The notes beneath the pieces are model-generated. The model worked only from the letters and a program-made list of their open reading frames with translations. It had not been told where the DNA came from and did not search any database. From an uncultured bacterium (GTDB lineage: Bacteria > Verrucomicrobiota > Verrucomicrobiia > Verrucomicrobiales > DEV007), in the NCBI GenBank assembly GCA_963977015.1, contig CAXBMO010000011.1:123844-187843 (forward strand): a stretch of 64,000 nucleotides of DNA, read 5' to 3'. Shown here piece after piece: positions 16,760 through 59,777 of this stretch. The translations under genes were made by a program, and so were the position numbers. Each line of letters starts with the position of its first letter. Position 1 is the stretch's first letter.

Positions 16760-18082
16760 TCAATCGGACGATGCCTGGAAGAAACCTTCCGCCTTGTGGC
16801 GCGTCTCTTCGAATTCCAGCTCCGGCTCAGAGTCGGCGACGATGCCCGCCCCGACGTGAAAATGGAGGGTCTCGTTCTCGCGAACCGCGCTCCGGATCAC
16901 AATGTTGAACTGGCTCTCTCCGTTCAGCCCGAAGTAACCGATCGTTCCGGTGTAAACTCCCCGCTCAATCGGCTCCAGCTCGGCGATGATCTCCCGCGCA
17001 CGCTTTTTGGGCGCGCCGGTAATCGAGCCGCCCGGAAAACAGGCCTTCAACGCATTCACATGGTTGATTTCGCTCTTCAGCCGACCTTGCACGGTGGATA
17101 CAAGATGGAAGACCTGTTCGTAGGTTTCGAGCTCGAGAAGCCGGGATGCCTGCACACTGCCAAACTCGCAAACCTGGCCAAGATCGTTGCGCTCCAGATC
17201 CGTGATCATGATCAACTCCGCGCGCTCCTTTTCCGATGTGATCAAATCATACCGGCTCCGCTCATCCCTTTCCGTGTCCCGAAACCGGGGACGGGTTCCC
17301 TTGATGGGGCGGGTTTGGATCCCTCGTCCGCTCAGCTTCAGAAACTGCTCGGGCGACGATGATAAAATCTGGCGATTGCAAAGATTCAGGTAGGCGGAAA
17401 ACGGGGCCGGGGAGGCGTCGCGAAGCGCTTCGTAGAAGGCGAACGGGTCAAGGTCGGGAGGGAACGGCGCCTGAAAACGCCGGGTCAAATTCACCTGATA
17501 GATGTCTCCCGCCGCGATGTAATCTTTCGCCTTGCGCACGAGACGGCAGAACTCCGCCTTGCCCATGTCCGCCTGGAACTCCAGGGGCGGGAGCGCCGGC
17601 CTGGGTTCGGGCGCATCTGGGAGCCGTTGCGCGAGCCCGCCGTAGTCGAACCATTCCGCCGTGCGGTGCCGGAACACGAGAATCCTTGGATAAAGCCCGA
17701 ACTCGAACTCGCCGTTGTAGGCAATCGTTCCAAAGGCGCCGCCGAGCGGAAACCCCAGATCCGGGGCCGATTCGATCGCATTGTCGCGCAGCCAACGCTC
17801 CAGCTTCGAGGTATCGCGGAGATCCCCGTGCACCACCTCCTCGGGCTCGAAGGTCAACAGCGAAATCTCATCGCCCGATTGGCTCAAGCTCGACGAGTCG
17901 AGGAAAATCGCTTCCGGCTGATCCGCAATGCGGGCAAAGACCTCATTCGGCTGCACATCCGGCCAGTCGAGGCGGTTCAGGAGATTCTTGCTGTGGTTGG
18001 GAACAATCGGACTCACAAGCGAACGCCTAATGGAACCTGTTCCGGCCAAAGCGCAATCCCGCGTTGTGTCAGTTTCCGCCAA
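16760..18082 (-). CDS. pabB: Aminodeoxychorismate synthase component I (chorismate-binding)
   Basis: GDIYQVNL, SPAPFSAY, SSSPEQFL, TRPIKGTRPR, AELIMITDLERNDLG, FPGGSITGAPKKRA, GAGIVADS. Start uncertain (possibly GTG 18016). Confidence 0.85.
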   Translation of the reverse strand: MAETDTTRDCALAGTGSIRRSLVSPIVPNHSKNLLNRLDWPDVQPNEVFARIADQPEAIFLDSSSLSQSGDEISLLTFEPEEVVHGDLRDTSKLERWLRDNAIESAPDLGFPLGGAFGTIAYNGEFEFGLYPRILVFRHRTAEWFDYGGLAQRLPDAPEPRPALPPLEFQADMGKAEFCRLVRKAKDYIAAGDIYQVNLTRRFQAPFPPDLDPFAFYEALRDASPAPFSAYLNLCNRQILSSSPEQFLKLSGRGIQTRPIKGTRPRFRDTERDERSRYDLITSEKERAELIMITDLERNDLGQVCEFGSVQASRLLELETYEQVFHLVSTVQGRLKSEINHVNALKACFPGGSITGAPKKRAREIIAELEPIERGVYTGTIGYFGLNGESQFNIVIRSAVRENETLHFHVGAGIVADSEPELEFEETRHKAEGFFQASSD

Positions 18083-18160
18083 AAACAGCGCATAAATCCC
18101 GGAAGATGGCTCGAAAAAAGGAGAGACAAGACACGTTCAGCCCTCTAACATGTTGGCGTC

Positions 18161-18862
18161 ATGAAAATCTCCTTTCTGATCGCCACGTTGTTGGCCATGT
18201 GGAGCGCAGGGCTCCATGCGCGAACCTGGACCAGCGCCGACGGCACCAAAACCTTCGAAGCAGAATTACGGTCCTACCACGTCGCCAGCGGAACCGTCGC
18301 GGTGGTTACCGACAAGGGAGTGCTGATGAAGTTTCCGGCCAGCAAACTCTCGGAGGCAGACAACGCCTACCTCAAAGAGCAAAACGCCCTCAAGCCCGCC
18401 CCATCCGAGGACCCTGCCGAAATGCTTTCGTCCCAGGCCGTTGGCGAGGAGGTTCTGAAAGCCAAGCTCCATCGCCTTGAAGGCAAACGCTTCCGCCGGG
18501 CCGAGATCGACAAGGCGCCGGAATATTACATTCTCTACTACTCGGCTTCCTGGTGAGGCCCCTGCCGTGCTTCTGTTCCACAGGTTGTGGAGAAATACAA
18601 CAGTAGCGTCGCCGACAACCCCAAGGTTGCCATGATCCACATTTCCCAGGACACCAGTGAGGACGCTGCGGAGAGTTGGGCGGTCAAGGAAGGCTTTCCC
18701 TGGCTCACCGTTCTCCCCGGGGATGTGAAACGCAGCGATTTGTCGAAATACCGCACCCGGCCCGTCGTGCCATTCTACACCCTGGTCGATGCCTCGGGGA
18801 ATCAGTTGGCGACCGGATCCGGCGCCGTTTTCGCCAAAGCGGCGGAAGTCGGCGCTCAGTAA
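18161..18862 (+). CDS. Predicted selenoprotein: signal peptide + SHD1 domain + thioredoxin-like (nucleoredoxin/tryparedoxin-type) domain, UxxC active site
   Basis: ORFs 18161..18556 and 18587..18862 are in the same frame. Read-through of TGA 18554-18556 gives YYILYYSASW-U-GPCRASVPQVVEKYN...MIHISQD...FPWLTV...VVPFYTLVD, a 233-aa protein. The N-terminal RTWTSADG.KTFEAEL...KLSEADNAYL matches the SHD1 pattern. Confidence 0.88.
18571..18594 (+). promoter_or_regulatory. Candidate bacterial SECIS hairpin
   Basis: TTC-TGT-TCCACA-GGT-TGTGGA-GAA: perfect 6-bp upper stem, G-starting apical loop 26 nt 3' of the UGA, bulged lower stem. Confidence 0.7.
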
Positions 18863-18905
18863 ATCACCGTTCGCCCCGTGCGCAGCGCGCCGTCTCAGCG
18901 CCGTC

Positions 18906-19586
18906 TCAGCGCTGTTTCTCCCAAGGAAACCGCACGTAATCGGTCGACCAATTGCCGCTTTCCTTCTTCTGCTCGAACAGGAGGCGGTTCGGTTCCCGTT
19001 TCGCGCGATCGATCCCCTCGGTCTCGCCGATGTGATGGATCACCATCTGCACGTCCTCGCGCATCTCCGTCTCCACCACCGGATCCGCGCGATAAAAGAA
19101 ATGGATATCGGTCTGGCCATAGTTCCCCACAAAATCTTCGTCACAGCCGCCGACTTCCCAATACACCTTCCGCGTCAGCAGCATCGTGCCCGGGTGAATT
19201 TTCGTCTTGCCGCTTTCCGGATCAATCCGCTGAAACTTGTAGATCTTGCGCTCGTTCTTCTCCGCCAACGCCACCACCTTTTCCGCTTCGGACGGAGGCA
19301 GAATGTGGTCCATGTCGCTGTGGAACATCCACTCCGTCTCGCACACCTTTGTCCCCAGATTTCGCGCCCCGCCGATGTTGCAATACATGTCCTCCATCAC
19401 GCGGTAGATCTCCAGGTGAAAGTCCGGTTCCCCGACCAATTCCGACACCGGCGTTTTCGAGCAATCGTCCACCAGCATGATGCGAATCTGCTGCTTCAGT
19501 TCCTCCGGATAGCTCGCCCAGTTCTCCAGCTGCCGCTGCAGCATTTCCGTCTGGTTGTAGTAGGTGTAGATGAGTGTCAGTGCCAT
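18906..19586 (-). CDS. GT-A fold glycosyltransferase (family 2/7-like)
   Basis: IMLVDDCS, GGARNLG, DxD motif (SDMDH), VGGCDEDFVGNYGQTD. Confidence 0.8.
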   Translation of the reverse strand: MALTLIYTYYNQTEMLQRQLENWASYPEELKQQIRIMLVDDCSKTPVSELVGEPDFHLEIYRVMEDMYCNIGGARNLGTKVCETEWMFHSDMDHILPPSEAEKVVALAEKNERKIYKFQRIDPESGKTKIHPGTMLLTRKVYWEVGGCDEDFVGNYGQTDIHFFYRADPVVETEMREDVQMVIHHIGETEGIDRAKREPNRLLFEQKKESGNWSTDYVRFPWEKQR

Positions 19587-19599
19587 GCCTGCGTAAGGA

Positions 19600-20196
19600 T
19601 CAATGCCATTCCAGGTTGATGCGGTCGGTCAATCCCATGTCCGCGATCCGTTTGCGGAGTGCCTCGGTTCGCTCGGCCAGTTCGGGAATCTTGCGCTCGT
19701 GAGTCTCGACCAAAATCTGCTCGGCGACGTCGTAGGCGCCGGTGTCGAGCAGGCGGTTCACCACCTCCAGTTCCGCCCCTTCAACGTCGATCTTCAGAAC
19801 CGTGACCTTGGTGTCGAGCGATTGGAGAAACTCGGCCAGGTCGATCGTTTCAACTTCGACCGGAGCCGCCGTATTCACGTTGCCCTTGAAGTCGAGGAGT
19901 GAGGATCCGTTCGCCGTTTTCAGCGTTTCCGGCCCCAAATCCTCGTGGAGAAAGAAGCTCGCCGTCGCGTTTTTGTCGGACACGGCCTTCTGATACAGCG
20001 TCAGGTCTTTGGCATCGGCAAAGCGCTCTTTCAGATGGCGAACGGCTGCTGGATTCGGCTCAAAGGCGTGAACCACGGCTCCTTTTTCGAGGAACACTTC
20101 AATGGTGTCGCCAATGCTTGCTCCACAATCCACAACGACGGAACCCGGGGCGAGTTCCAGCGTCTTGAGAAAGGTTTCGTCGAGTTTTCCAGTCAT
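19600..20196 (-). CDS. FkbM family methyltransferase
   Basis: VVVDCGASIG, VHAFEPNP, VLKIDVEGAE. Confidence 0.9.
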   Translation of the reverse strand: MTGKLDETFLKTLELAPGSVVVDCGASIGDTIEVFLEKGAVVHAFEPNPAAVRHLKERFADAKDLTLYQKAVSDKNATASFFLHEDLGPETLKTANGSSLLDFKGNVNTAAPVEVETIDLAEFLQSLDTKVTVLKIDVEGAELEVVNRLLDTGAYDVAEQILVETHERKIPELAERTEALRKRIADMGLTDRINLEWH

Positions 20197-20205
20197 GATG
20201 GGGTG

Positions 20206-21135
20206 TTAGAGAACGCTCTTTACGAGTTCGGTCCATTCGTCGCGAAACCGGTCAATGTGAAACACTTTCTGGGCGGTTTCGCGACCAGCGCCGCCGATGC
20301 GTCGCGTCAGGTCAGGGTCGTTTTGTAAGAGCCGAAGATGGTCGATCAATTCGTCGATGTCATCCGAACAATAGCCGTTTACGCCATTTTCGATGTAGTC
20401 GGATTCTCCCTGCGAAGCGGTGCTCACCACCGCCAACCCGCAAAGCATCGCCTCCGCCCGCGTTCGCGGATTCGGAGACGCGTGGGCTGGATTCAGCAAA
20501 ATGCTGGAGTGGCTCAGAAAATCGCGATATCCGTCCCAGCTCGAAAACTTCACGTCCCGGCCCACCCAACACAGGTGAATTCCCGCGTCTTCGATTTTCG
20601 TCACGGCTTCGTGATTGCGAAACTGTGAGTGGCGCCCCGCCTGGTGCGACTGCACCACGACAACGCGTGGATCTGAGTAATCCGTTTGCGGCCATTCCTC
20701 GGGGCTGAACCCATGGAGGATCGGTCGCGAGTTCGCAAGTCCCCAAAGTCGATGCGACGTCGTGCTGTTGGCGACCACCGGCAGATCACCCAGAAAATCC
20801 TGCATCTCCTGGGACGAACACCCATCCACCATGTTGCACCCGTGATTGATCACGATCTTCGGCCCCTCAAAATGCGAGCGCCAATACTCAAACAGGTTGC
20901 GCTTGTCGATCTCATCCAACGTCCATTGATCCACATGGAGAAGCATCACCTCGCTCTCGTTCGCCTCATGGGAAGGAATGAGCCGCACGTGATCGGGGAG
21001 GGGACGATGCTGCGACGCCCACATCCGGCTGGTATCGGTAATCAGCGACCACTCGAACGGGACTTTGAACAGTTCGTAGTCATGCCCAATATGCCAGGGA
21101 TACTTGACGACCTTGATCGGAGCTTCGTTGGGCAT
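20206..21135 (-). CDS. GT-B glycosyltransferase (GT4-like)
   Basis: EAMLCGLAVVST, IENGVNGY, RRIGGAGRETAQKVF. Confidence 0.85.
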   Translation of the reverse strand: MPNEAPIKVVKYPWHIGHDYELFKVPFEWSLITDTSRMWASQHRPLPDHVRLIPSHEANESEVMLLHVDQWTLDEIDKRNLFEYWRSHFEGPKIVINHGCNMVDGCSSQEMQDFLGDLPVVANSTTSHRLWGLANSRPILHGFSPEEWPQTDYSDPRVVVVQSHQAGRHSQFRNHEAVTKIEDAGIHLCWVGRDVKFSSWDGYRDFLSHSSILLNPAHASPNPRTRAEAMLCGLAVVSTASQGESDYIENGVNGYCSDDIDELIDHLRLLQNDPDLTRRIGGAGRETAQKVFHIDRFRDEWTELVKSVL

Positions 21136-57749: not shown

Positions 57750-59777
57750 CTAAGGTTCCAAATATTTTTCGAACCACGCCAAGTCCCATTTCAATTTTGC
57801 CTTTCGATGGGTGTAGCTGCTGAGTCCGTGACCAGCGTCGGGATAAATCAACAGCTCGCAGGGCGCATCGAGGTAGTGATGGAGCGCGCGATGAAGCCCG
57901 CGACTGTGAGACGCCGGCACCCGGGGATCCTTTTCGCCGACGTGAATGATGGTCGCGGTTTTGATGCCTTTGCGCATTCCAAAGACAGGTGACGCCTTCA
58001 GGTAAGCCGCAGGCTTTTCCCAGGGAAGTCCCTCCATGTAGTTGATGACGTGGCCCGGCGTATCCTCCTCCGCCCACTGCATCGTCATGTCAAAGACGCC
58101 CGCACCGCTGCTGGCCGCTTGAAAGCGATTGGTCGCAATCAGGCAGTTGGTAAGATACCCACCGTTGCTCCAACCGCTAACGCCGAGCCTCTCCGGATCA
58201 GCAATCCCGCGCTGGATCATCGCGTCGACACCGAGCAGGATATCCTGAACCTCGATCTCGTTTTCGCGTCCGATCAAGTCCGTCATGAACTCGTCCCCAT
58301 ATCCCGTTGAACCCCGATAGTTGGGAAGCAACACGGCATACCCCTTTGCCGGAAAAAGGCTGCGATGGTAAATCCAGTAGCGAAAACAGAATTTTGCCGA
58401 GGCGGTGGGTCCTCCGTGAATGGCAACGATCAGGGGAAGCGGGGCTTCTCCGTCGTAGTCGGGCGGCAGCTCCAGAATTCCTTCGACTTCATCGCCATCC
58501 GTTCCCTTCCATTGCACCAGGCCCAGCTTGGGGAGTTTCCAGCGGTCGACCTGGGGATTGACTTTGACGATCCGCTCCGGTTCTTCCGAAAGTAAGCCAA
58601 CAAAGAGATCGCCCGCATAATCATGACCGCTTTGCGTGGTCGCGATTCGCGAGTTTTCGCGGGAAATGCTGAAATCGTCGATCACCACGATTTCCGGAGA
58701 GAGAAGTTCGGACACTCCGGTTTCGAGATCGACGCTGTAGATGCGTTCCAACGCGTGGTGATCCCCCTGAAAGGCCAGCTTTGTGGAGCCAGGAATCCAT
58801 TTCAGGCCACCGTTCACCTCAACATCTTCAGGACGGGGCAACTGGCGGATCTCAGGTTCGTTTCCGGCGAAGGTAGCCGCAAAAATCCAGGTAGGATAGC
58901 CATCGAAACTAATCGAAAACGCGAGGTTCCGACTATCGTCTGACCAAACAGGGTTCTCCAGCCAGCCGAACGGAGATGGTGCTTCGTCCCGCCATTGAGG
59001 ATCCGCCAAGTCGATTGCGTTCCCTGTTTTGACTTCGAGCACGCGAACCTCCGACTTCCCTTCGTGGGAAATCAGGAGCTGATCGGGATCCGTGATCATC
59101 GCGATCCGCGTCTGGTCGGGCGATACTGCAAAGCTCCGAATGTAACGCGTTTCGTCGACCAGCTTCTCGGCCTTCCACGCTTCCAGATCCAATTCCCAAA
59201 GCTCGGATACTTTGTGAATCCCGTGACCAAACTCAAGATCGTCCTTGAACTCGTTTCGCAGGTCAGCCCAATCCTCAATCGTATGATCCTTCGTCACCGT
59301 ATAATAGATCGAGGAGCCATCCCAAGCGAGTTCATACCGTTGAATCCCGCCCTTGACCTGGGTAACCGGCGTTAGCCCGGATCCATCGCGGAAAATCCGC
59401 CAGACCTGGGTTTTCCCGTCATAAGGTGGCTTCTCCTCGCCTTCGCGCTCAAAGTTCGCTGCGAAATAGATCGTGCGGTTATCGGGAGCCCATTGTGGGG
59501 CATACTCGCTGGTCCGCTCAAAGGTGAGGCGTTGTCGTTGCTTCGTTTCTACGTTAACGACCCAAAGGTCGTAGTTGCGTTGATCGTCTTCCTTGTTCCA
59601 CCGAACCTCAATGTAGGCGACATGTCTTCCGTCGGGCGAAATTTCGCAATGGCTGATATAGGCCTGGGAGAAGTAGTCTTCCAGTGTGATGTCGTGATCG
59701 CGAACTGCAGGCTCCGAAAACGCAGCGCTCAGACTGCAGACAAGAAGTACAAACGTGGTAAAGCGAAAGCTGCTCAT
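57750..59777 (-). CDS. S9 family (prolyl oligopeptidase/acylaminoacyl) peptidase
   Basis: Propeller SPDG repeats, IHGGP, PNYRGSTGYG, nucleophile GWSNGG, GEKDPRVP, GH. Confidence 0.95.
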   Translation of the reverse strand: MSSFRFTTFVLLVCSLSAAFSEPAVRDHDITLEDYFSQAYISHCEISPDGRHVAYIEVRWNKEDDQRNYDLWVVNVETKQRQRLTFERTSEYAPQWAPDNRTIYFAANFEREGEEKPPYDGKTQVWRIFRDGSGLTPVTQVKGGIQRYELAWDGSSIYYTVTKDHTIEDWADLRNEFKDDLEFGHGIHKVSELWELDLEAWKAEKLVDETRYIRSFAVSPDQTRIAMITDPDQLLISHEGKSEVRVLEVKTGNAIDLADPQWRDEAPSPFGWLENPVWSDDSRNLAFSISFDGYPTWIFAATFAGNEPEIRQLPRPEDVEVNGGLKWIPGSTKLAFQGDHHALERIYSVDLETGVSELLSPEIVVIDDFSISRENSRIATTQSGHDYAGDLFVGLLSEEPERIVKVNPQVDRWKLPKLGLVQWKGTDGDEVEGILELPPDYDGEAPLPLIVAIHGGPTASAKFCFRYWIYHRSLFPAKGYAVLLPNYRGSTGYGDEFMTDLIGRENEIEVQDILLGVDAMIQRGIADPERLGVSGWSNGGYLTNCLIATNRFQAASSGAGVFDMTMQWAEEDTPGHVINYMEGLPWEKPAAYLKASPVFGMRKGIKTATIIHVGEKDPRVPASHSRGLHRALHHYLDAPCELLIYPDAGHGLSSYTHRKAKLKWDLAWFEKYLEP

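Follow-up and report, generated by a model that had tools for sequence, protein, structure and literature searches.

When a TGA falls in frame within the active site of a predicted thioredoxin-fold protein, does it end the gene, or is it read as selenocysteine (Sec)? The locus that raises this question lies in a window of 64,000 nucleotides from an uncultured bacterium of the Verrucomicrobiales (lineage DEV007; contig CAXBMO010000011.1, here C11:123844-187843), taken from a 6.89 Mb assembly of 51 contigs that is 95% complete with 2% estimated contamination. On the plus strand of the window, positions 18161-18862 form one frame of 233 codons whose sole interruption is TGA 18554-18556, exactly as an earlier sequence-only reading of this stretch had described it. 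Translation from ATG 18161 to the TGA yields 131 residues, ending in ...PEYYILYYSASW; past the TGA the frame resumes as GPCRASVPQVVEKY... and runs for 101 further codons up to its TAA. Under translation table 11 the two halves appear as separate open reading frames (ORFs) that share one frame, 18161..18556 and 18587..18862, the latter with a GTG start, and the read-through product is a protein of 233 residues (P0001) with the active site ...YYSASW-U-GPCR.... We consider it very probable that 18161-18862 is a genuine Sec-decoded gene that would specify a single exported selenoprotein of 233 residues. This reading is supported by a Sec/Cys column in homologues, by a hairpin found only with Sec, by a complete Sec pathway in the genome and by coding constraint past the TGA.

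A search of protein databases returned 96 matches, among which 49 end at the Trp just before the active site (45 as ...Y[YF]SASW and 4 as ...YFTASW, at 128-173 residues) and 39 hold the motif ...SASW-CxxC (CGPC in 31, CPPC in 7 and CAPC in 1). The other eight comprise two forms of about 240 residues, P0026 and P0032, of which P0026 was aligned and reads WGASWCGPC, and six proteins of other length or architecture. The 49 relatives that stop at the TGA bear out the earlier expectation that standard annotation would split such a gene. We also searched 61 related genomes at the DNA level, translating through stops. Nine of them gave full-length matches with a single TGA, at 33-100% identity including the window's own, and matches without any stop were found in many of the others. 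A scan of species-representative genomes with the pattern Y[IVL][LFM]Y[YF]SASW, in which the residues after the pattern were left unselected, contributed 79 extra loci; the Sec:Cys ratio that results from it is not an unbiased census. When P0001 was compared by tblastn with 109 loci, 115 matches spanned residue 132, with TGA in 71, TGC in 33 and TGT in 11, and deduplication left 67 Sec-type (TGA) and 44 Cys-type (TGC/TGT) loci at this one column. The comparison shows that the UGA is a conserved coding position, which corresponds to the first Cys of the thioredoxin CxxC and is the place that the sequence-only reading had assigned to it from the motif.

In the 49 shortened entries, gene callers and public records treat the TGA as a stop, as would be right for a Cys-type thioredoxin pseudogene in which the TGA had arisen by recent nonsense mutation or by an error of sequencing. 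Yet the identical TGA is found at 67 non-identical loci that share 33-78% identity, purifying selection persists beyond it, and it is accompanied by a Sec-specific hairpin in a genome whose Sec machinery is complete, as set out below. A pseudogene is on these grounds scarcely credible.

Judged by their titles, the Sec-type loci of the named-record scan all belong to Verrucomicrobiales, Akkermansiaceae, Roseibacillus, Rubritalea or generic 'Verrucomicrobia/-ota' records, and Cys-type loci come also from Chthoniobacterales, Luteolibacter, Haloferula and one Planctomycetaceae record. Cultured strains with a Sec-type locus include Roseibacillus ishigakijimensis KCTC 12986 (L071), Roseibacillus persicicus KCTC 12988 (L095), Rubritalea marina DSM 17716 (L079) and Rubritalea profundi SAORIC-165 (L085). 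We built a quick maximum-likelihood tree from 110 rows (66 Sec and 44 Cys) with the active-site column masked, leaving out the Sec row L082 because its locus ends too early. At least seven Sec/Cys changes are required by this tree, and its well-supported branches alone force at least two. The window protein falls in a clade of 62 rows, 57 of them Sec and five Cys (L066/L068/L069, L073 and L087). Frequent exchange between Sec and Cys is a known pattern in the portion of PMC1794560 available to us, and the repeated changes in the tree fit it. Additionally, six loci (L022, L077, L080, L084, L089 and L097) hold two or three Sec-type thioredoxin genes in tandem within 1-1.5 kb, each copy with its own TGA and hairpin, an arrangement that suggests local expansion of the family.

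Constraint on the frame does not stop at the TGA. In four pairs formed with the window gene, the ratio of nonsynonymous to synonymous rates (dN/dS) over codons +1 to +60 was 0.075-0.216; the 40 codons ahead of the TGA gave 0.084-0.103. These values are rough, as dS is near saturation, and one upstream value could not be computed for that reason. The resolving Cys codon, three codons after the TGA, is TGC at 38 and TGT at 29 of the 67 Sec-type loci. It thus varies only synonymously in a region that would lie outside the coding sequence were the TGA a true stop, which indicates that the stretch is translated. In all ten Sec rows examined, the frame stays open for about 100 codons after the TGA and encodes the remainder of the fold. 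As judged from these patterns, the sequence past the TGA is translated.

The same region bears on the possibility that the locus holds two genes, an exported protein consisting of an SLA1 homology domain (SHD1) only (18161-18556) and a protein of 91 residues starting at GTG 18587. Both are legal table-11 ORFs, but G-P-C-R-x-S-x-P-Q-x is encoded by the 30 nt that separate the TGA from the GTG; variation in this stretch is codon-periodic and its Cys never changes. Taken by itself, the downstream ORF would also lack the fold's first strand together with the active site, and the Cys-type relatives are single proteins of 225-250 residues. We regard two separate genes as extremely improbable.

If the UGA is read as Sec, a selenocysteine insertion sequence (SECIS) should follow it. 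The sequence-only reading had pointed to a hairpin of TCCACA and TGTGGA around a GGT loop, 26 nt after the UGA. That hairpin is present (TCCACA at 18577-18582, TGTGGA at 18586-18591) and its loop lies where it had been placed, but relatives favour a 6-bp stem with an AGGUU pentaloop, and the extra A-U pair with its GGU triloop is an alternative fold available in the window sequence. The hairpin of the family has a 6-bp stem and an AGKUN loop that starts 25 nt after the UGA. With the T of the TGA counted as 1, the stem of Sec-type loci joins positions 23-28 to 34-39 and the loop occupies 29-33. The loop reads AGUUG at 38 of the 67 Sec-type loci, AGUUA at 18, AGGUU at 5 (including the window), AGUUU at 3, AGUUC at 2 and AGGUG at 1. 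At least five of the six stem pairs are present at 59 of 67 Sec-type loci versus one of 44 Cys-type loci.

Codon choice within the hairpin follows the same division. The Pro codon is CCA at 55 of 66 Sec-type loci versus 3 of 44 Cys-type loci; the codon after it is CAG (Gln) at 66 of 67 Sec-type loci, with Gln rare among Cys-type loci. The Leu codon is TTR in 56 of 56 Sec forms and CTN in 34 of 34 Cys forms, and the Val codon is GTG at 66 of 67 Sec-type loci versus 14 of 37 Cys-type loci. A natural control for constraint on the RNA is provided by L087 (L087:1630-1707, plus strand), a Cys form nested among Sec forms that encodes the same peptide, APQLVEKY, with the codons CCG-CAA-CTC-GTG-GAA. 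These synonymous codons destroy the hairpin, indicating that once the UGA was lost the constraint on the RNA was lost too. The comparison shows a hairpin that is preserved at synonymous positions in TGA-bearing genes alone, and it is these positions that carry the decisive SECIS signal.

The mini-SECIS of Escherichia coli fdhF, a short coding-region stem-loop with G and U in its apical loop, is bound by SelB and lies downstream of the UGA with fixed spacing. The hairpin described here is likewise a coding-region stem-loop at a fixed distance from the UGA with a G/U loop; unlike that of fdhF, it has an AGUUG/AGGUU pentaloop and no evident bulged U, and we consider it a candidate SelB site. A stem-loop directly after the UGA whose small apical loop contains a guanosine is also what the accessible part of PMC1088965 gives as the criterion for a bacterial SECIS, and the 6-bp stem with its AGKUN loop has this form. 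Across the genome, the full signature of UGA, xxC and hairpin core occurs once, at the window gene, and the hairpin core alone ten times. A loose hairpin scan picked out 17 of 239,706 TGA sites, about 13 of which look like off-frame noise.

We then asked whether the genome could decode such a codon. The four genes that the sequence-only reading had proposed to look for, selA, selB, selC and selD, were all found above curated cut-offs. The tRNA-Sec gene scored 61.8 bits with its Rfam model (cut-off 47), and its anticodon loop CUUCAAA gives the anticodon UCA. selA scored 498 bits (cut-off 268), selB 293 bits (cut-off 242) over 2-580 of 581 model positions, and selD, which has one in-frame TGA of its own, 376 bits (cut-off 125). 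The genome encodes a complete bacterial Sec pathway. A reassigned genetic code was considered as well and ruled out: TGA is the commonest ordinary stop in this genome, closing 1202 of the 2747 frames of at least 400 codons, and reassignment is for that reason not the explanation.

Several observations weigh against decoding as Sec. Folding of 18554-18620 gave z = -0.50, with 52 of 200 shuffles at least as stable, and an Rfam search of 17500-19500 at E <= 10 returned noise only (4 matches of 13-15 bits); the hairpin by itself is not beyond chance, and its significance comes from comparison with relatives. The stem is short, at 6 bp, and at 8 of the 67 Sec-type loci three or four of its pairs are all that form. 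The hairpin overlaps conserved codons (P-Q-L/V-V-E), so its conservation is partly at the protein level. RNAalifold found no consensus pairs in the 67 Sec sequences, and after this result the stem was tested as a named structure. ARAGORN called no tRNA gene at the tRNA-Sec locus, and all sel genes sit off the window's contig, in an assembly of 51 contigs with its 2% contamination. In the named-structure test on a gap-free alignment of the 67 sequences, 90.8% of the cells of the stem were paired, versus 35.6-60.2% when the 3' partner was slid by 1-3 columns. Compensatory changes occur at alignment pairs 35-51 (CG/UA/UG), 36-50 (UA/GC/CG/UG) and 40-46 (CG/GC); changes on both sides account for nine cells in three stem pairs (CG/UA, UA/GC/CG and CG/GC). 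The covariation score was 0.109 versus 0.057 in shuffles and was reached by none of 500 shuffles. Kept in Sec forms, absent from Cys forms and marked by compensatory changes, the hairpin behaves as the SECIS that had been proposed.

A different account of the UGA accepts that it is translated and questions the product: it may be recoded to a residue other than Sec, for instance by a near-cognate Cys or Trp tRNA, or the gene may yield mainly the truncated protein and give the full-length form only with selenium, as a selenium-gated switch. Termination competes with Sec insertion in any SelB-dependent gene, and the truncated product would keep an intact signal peptide and SHD1 domain (model pLDDT, the predicted local distance difference test, 86). 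It would, however, end within the thioredoxin domain after the first core strand, which makes a designed role for it improbable. As for recoding, the alternative residue is Cys, and not Trp or Gly, at 44 of 44 non-TGA loci, and the hairpin together with a full-length SelB points to canonical Sec insertion. We judge this account quite unlikely and retain Sec insertion as the favoured reading of the UGA.

Turning to the protein, its first 20 residues resemble a Sec-type signal peptide. The pattern of n-, h- and c-regions recurs in homologues, with Ala mostly at -1 in the homologue alignment (A1), conservation begins sharply at R21-T-W-T-S, and the AlphaFold2 (AF2) model shows residues 4-14 as a helix of low confidence. 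The domain that follows had been called an SHD1 module from its sequence. It appears SHD1-like by family profile and by fold, but the protein itself stays below the Pfam threshold, with 19.6 bits (E 8.4e-4) on residues 20-75 and a cut-off of 23.7. Among 24 family members, eight match SHD1 at E <= 0.01, the best at 1e-6. A profile of 30 TGA-truncated entries, compared with the sequences of the PDB, had the SHD1 of Sla1 (2hbp_A) as its top match at E 0.024. The same structure was the top fold match of a model of the N-terminal half (pLDDT 86), at E 2.3e-3 and a target template-modelling (TM) score of 0.73; it superposes on the model with a root-mean-square deviation of 1.6 A over 57 columns and outranks YgdR-like and Tudor domains. 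These three lines agree on an SHD1-like domain, each of them weak.

The domain thus resembles the SHD1 of Sla1 (PF03983; PDB 2HBP) as top profile and fold match and shares with it a ...KLSxxD.A... motif. In yeast, SHD1 is cytosolic and binds the endocytic signal NPFxD; unlike it, the domain in the window is bacterial and predicted to be extracytoplasmic. SHD1 (PF03983) was matched at nine other places in the genome, within open frames of 235-752 residues and at eight of the nine above the cut-off, and at none in 14 well-known control genomes. Exported proteins of this lineage seem to use the domain repeatedly as a module.

The C-terminal part was read earlier as a thioredoxin of nucleoredoxin or tryparedoxin type, and profiles and structures agree. 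On residues 94-214, Pfam gave Thioredoxin_8 40.2 bits (cut-off 27), Thioredoxin 35.7 (23.5) and AhpC-TSA 30.3 (26), and Thioredoxin_8 was matched by 17 of 24 aligned family members, the other seven being truncated entries. AF2 modelled the read-through protein with a mean pLDDT of 90.5 and a predicted TM score (pTM) of 0.72. In the model the thioredoxin fold is complete only with the half downstream of the TGA, and the helix after the active site begins at residue 133. For this domain the best Foldseek matches, at E 1.5e-7 to 1e-6 and with target TM scores of 0.58-0.72 among the top ten, were the Wuchereria bancrofti thioredoxin 4fyu and tryparedoxins; ResA and StoA came next. The motifs IHISQD, FPW and VPFY, noted earlier as marks of the fold, are present and lie in conserved columns of A1. 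The Pro of the last of these, P204, would be cis, as in thioredoxin folds generally. No NCBIfam model scored above its cut-off for the protein, including the selenoprotein models TsoB and SelL-related. Equivalogy with TlpA, ResA, DsbE (CcmG) or StoA was rejected on the NCBIfam scores of ResA (21.5 bits, cut-off 170), DsbE (20.7, 123), TlpA (15.1, 230) and StoA (21, 210).

The likeness to tryparedoxin and nucleoredoxin is seen in the best Pfam family (Thioredoxin_8, PF13905), in the W-C-x-P-C-type motif and in leading structural matches (1oc8, 1o81, 1fg4, 1qk8 and 9fov), at an identity of only 22-29%. Tryparedoxins and nucleoredoxins use Cys and occur in the cytosol of eukaryotes or kinetoplastids, whereas the window protein is bacterial, Sec-based, fused to SHD1 and predicted to be exported. 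The exported thioredoxin-fold reductases TlpA, ResA, CcmG (DsbE) and StoA, which are fed by DsbD or CcdA and have an N-terminal beta-hairpin extension, are also among the fold matches. The setting is similar in that the genome has a DsbD and differs in that no cytochrome c maturation context was seen at the examined loci.

The sequence-only reading had not recognised the architecture as that of a described selenoprotein. For the SHD1 fusion this seems justified; for the class as a whole the novelty was overstated, since thioredoxin-fold selenoproteins with UxxC (thioredoxin, 'Trx-like 1 COG0526' and 'thiol-disulfide isomerase-like') have been catalogued since 2005-2008, as the available parts of PMC1088965 (Zhang, Fomenko and Gladyshev, 2005), PMC2398784 (Zhang and Gladyshev, 2008) and the 2026 review PMC13188914 record. 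UxxC proteins of this fold are among the commonest marine selenoproteins in the available text of PMC2398784, whose Global Ocean Sampling survey counts 321 Sec sequences and 7,880 Cys homologues for 'Trx-like 1 (COG0526), UxxC', which takes third place among the marine selenoprotein families. As far as those texts could be compared, the window protein is like these families in having Sec for the first Cys of CxxC, many Cys homologues, a marine source and a small hairpin with a G in its apical loop after the UGA. It is unlike them in its N-terminal signal peptide and SHD1-like domain, of which they make no mention there. The comparison rests on the UxxC motif and on naming of COG0526 type, and not on sequences; the JGI name of the Cys homologues, 'thiol-disulfide isomerase/thioredoxin', is the COG0526 label. 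In the portions available, SHD1 does not occur in PMC13188914 or PMC12013277, Verrucomicrobia does not occur in those two or in PMC2398784 and PMC9312934, and 'signal peptide' does not occur in PMC13188914, PMC1088965 or PMC2398784. The SHD1 fusion and the Verrucomicrobiales subfamily appear, within these excerpts, to be unlisted in print, and the family may be one that is already included under 'Trx-like 1' or 'thiol-disulfide isomerase-like'.

How might such a protein work? SelB, carrying Sec-tRNA(Sec) with the anticodon UCA, would bind the hairpin on the translating mRNA and deliver Sec at the UGA, giving W-U-G-P-C. Sec-dependent export and cleavage of the signal peptide before R21 would follow. 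The tryparedoxin-like domain would then act as a periplasmic thiol/selenol-disulfide reductase, in which the selenolate of U132 would attack a substrate disulfide (or sulfenate) and C135 would resolve the selenenyl-sulfide, and the SHD1-like domain would serve as a targeting or partner-binding module. The oxidised enzyme would most plausibly be re-reduced by the DsbD of this genome, which itself has an in-frame UGA in its C-terminal thioredoxin domain. Extracytoplasmic thiol-disulfide reduction is the most likely role of the protein; for the specific role of a reductase fed by DsbD we put the chances at about even.

The in-frame TGA of DsbD stands for the first Cys of its C-terminal thioredoxin domain. 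The frame goes on for 94 codons, and 23 nt past the UGA begins the loop of a hairpin, GAGAC-AGUU-GUCUU. Periplasmic thioredoxin-like reductases ordinarily receive their electrons from DsbD, which makes a relay from DsbD to the SHD1-thioredoxin plausible. A DsbD match with a TGA anywhere in it was found in 7 of the 9 genomes that have a Sec-type orthologue versus 15 of the 52 others. This link is one of co-occurrence only, among genomes that are kin and in which both traits track the use of Sec, and it is to that extent a further point against the proposed role.

Hairpins of similar form follow other candidate Sec codons. A paralogue on another contig (C2), exported by prediction and lacking SHD1, has the hairpin CUGCAC-AGUUG-GUGCAG at the offset of the window gene and with a compensatory G-C pair. 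A loop of AGUU type follows four Sec-candidate UGAs of this genome, hinting at a recognition motif for SelB that is specific to the clade. On a wider scale one may speculate that marine Verrucomicrobiales possess a two-step selenium-based reducing pathway in the periplasm, from a Sec-DsbD (W-U-LTC) to Sec-thioredoxins, in which SHD1 would read peptide motifs and dock the reductase on exported clients and the SelB of the clade would read the AGUU-type loop; we think it rather unlikely that this scheme holds as a whole. Separately, on contig C10 (TGA at 58446, minus strand), an open frame ...GMTGVT-U-AGCKKDVSSAF... has the hairpin GACGUC-AGUUC-GGCGUU after its TGA and could be a UxxC metal-binding selenoprotein, resembling heavy-metal-associated (HMA) domains.

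If the gene is decoded as proposed, a family is mis-annotated: 49 of 96 relatives are recorded as 'hypothetical' or 'SLA1 homology domain' proteins of about 130 residues, and no NCBIfam model would rescue TGA-truncated entries. Dozens of Verrucomicrobiales genomes, among them those of cultured Roseibacillus and Rubritalea strains, would be put right by a family model together with the simple hairpin signature UGA-N6-TGY-N12-CCN-CAG-KTN-GTG. The textbook picture of Sec decoding is unchanged. What the family would add is an exported, multi-domain member of the thioredoxin-like selenoproteins, a hint of a selenium-dependent periplasmic redox chain with Sec-DsbD, and an unusually clean natural experiment on SECIS constraint, in which Sec and Cys forms of one peptide differ at synonymous sites. 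Coordinates are collected in Table 1.

Table 1. Features of the window gene (positions in the window) and of related loci elsewhere in the assembly (C, contig; L, locus).
Feature	Position	Strand	Basis or remark
Predicted Sec-type signal peptide, residues 1-20, MKISFLIATLLAMWSAGLHA, cleavage before R21	18161..18220	+	sequence reading
SHD1-like domain, residues 21-76, four beta strands and a helix, conserved KLSEAD motif	18221..18388	+	profile and fold matches
Linker, residues 77-93, rich in Pro, Glu and Ser	18389..18439	+	lowest pLDDT of the mature protein (block mean 76); variable and gapped in A1
Thioredoxin-fold domain of tryparedoxin/nucleoredoxin (Thioredoxin_8) type, residues 94-233	18440..18859	+	Pfam, AF2, Foldseek
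UGA, read as selenocysteine U132	18554..18556	+	Cys column in homologues; N-terminal nucleophilic position, W-U-G-P-C
Resolving cysteine C135 (TGC) of UxxC	18563..18565	+	TGC/TGT in 67/67 Sec-type loci
SECIS-like mini-hairpin, stem 18576-18581/18587-18592 (UUCCAC/GUGGAG), loop 18582-18586 (AGGUU)	18576..18592	+	comparison of relatives
Candidate cis-proline P204 in V-V-P-F-Y, facing the active site	18770..18772	+	Pro ([IV]-P) in 17/17 full-length A1 rows
True stop codon TAA	18860..18862	+	sequence reading
tRNA-Sec	C5:263260-263354 = L001:1501-1595	-	Rfam model; shares its contig with selD, at a distance of about 6.6 kb
selD, in-frame TGA ...SSCAG-U-ASK...	C5:255715-256644 (L018)	-	followed by CGCA-AGUUU-UGCG
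DsbD, 765 residues, ...FTADW-U671-LTC...	C12:129189-131486 = L129:862-3159	-	sequence reading
Exported thioredoxin-like selenoprotein candidate without SHD1, signal peptide, YHSASW-U-GGCK	C2, TGA at 344553	+	sequence reading
Other SHD1 places (examples)	C26:62613-62768, C5:295512-295667, C10:94830-95006, C11:11702-11860		SHD1 PF03983 search

The neighbourhood of the gene was inspected for partners. No redox partner was found among its neighbours in the window; nothing there backs the proposed function, and in the 1.5-kb flanks of 84 full-length loci no neighbour was conserved in more than seven; both findings count against that function. The sole related neighbour cluster consists of the tandem thioredoxin paralogues (6 of 84 loci), and with clusters this small synteny gives no functional clue. 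The flanking genes in the window encode a pyrroloquinoline quinone (PQQ)-type propeller, a chorismate-binding enzyme, a family 2 glycosyltransferase (GT2), an FkbM methyltransferase and a family 1 glycosyltransferase (GT1). The last three lie directly downstream on the opposite strand (18906-21135, minus) and are probably a polysaccharide-modification cluster unrelated to the selenoprotein gene.

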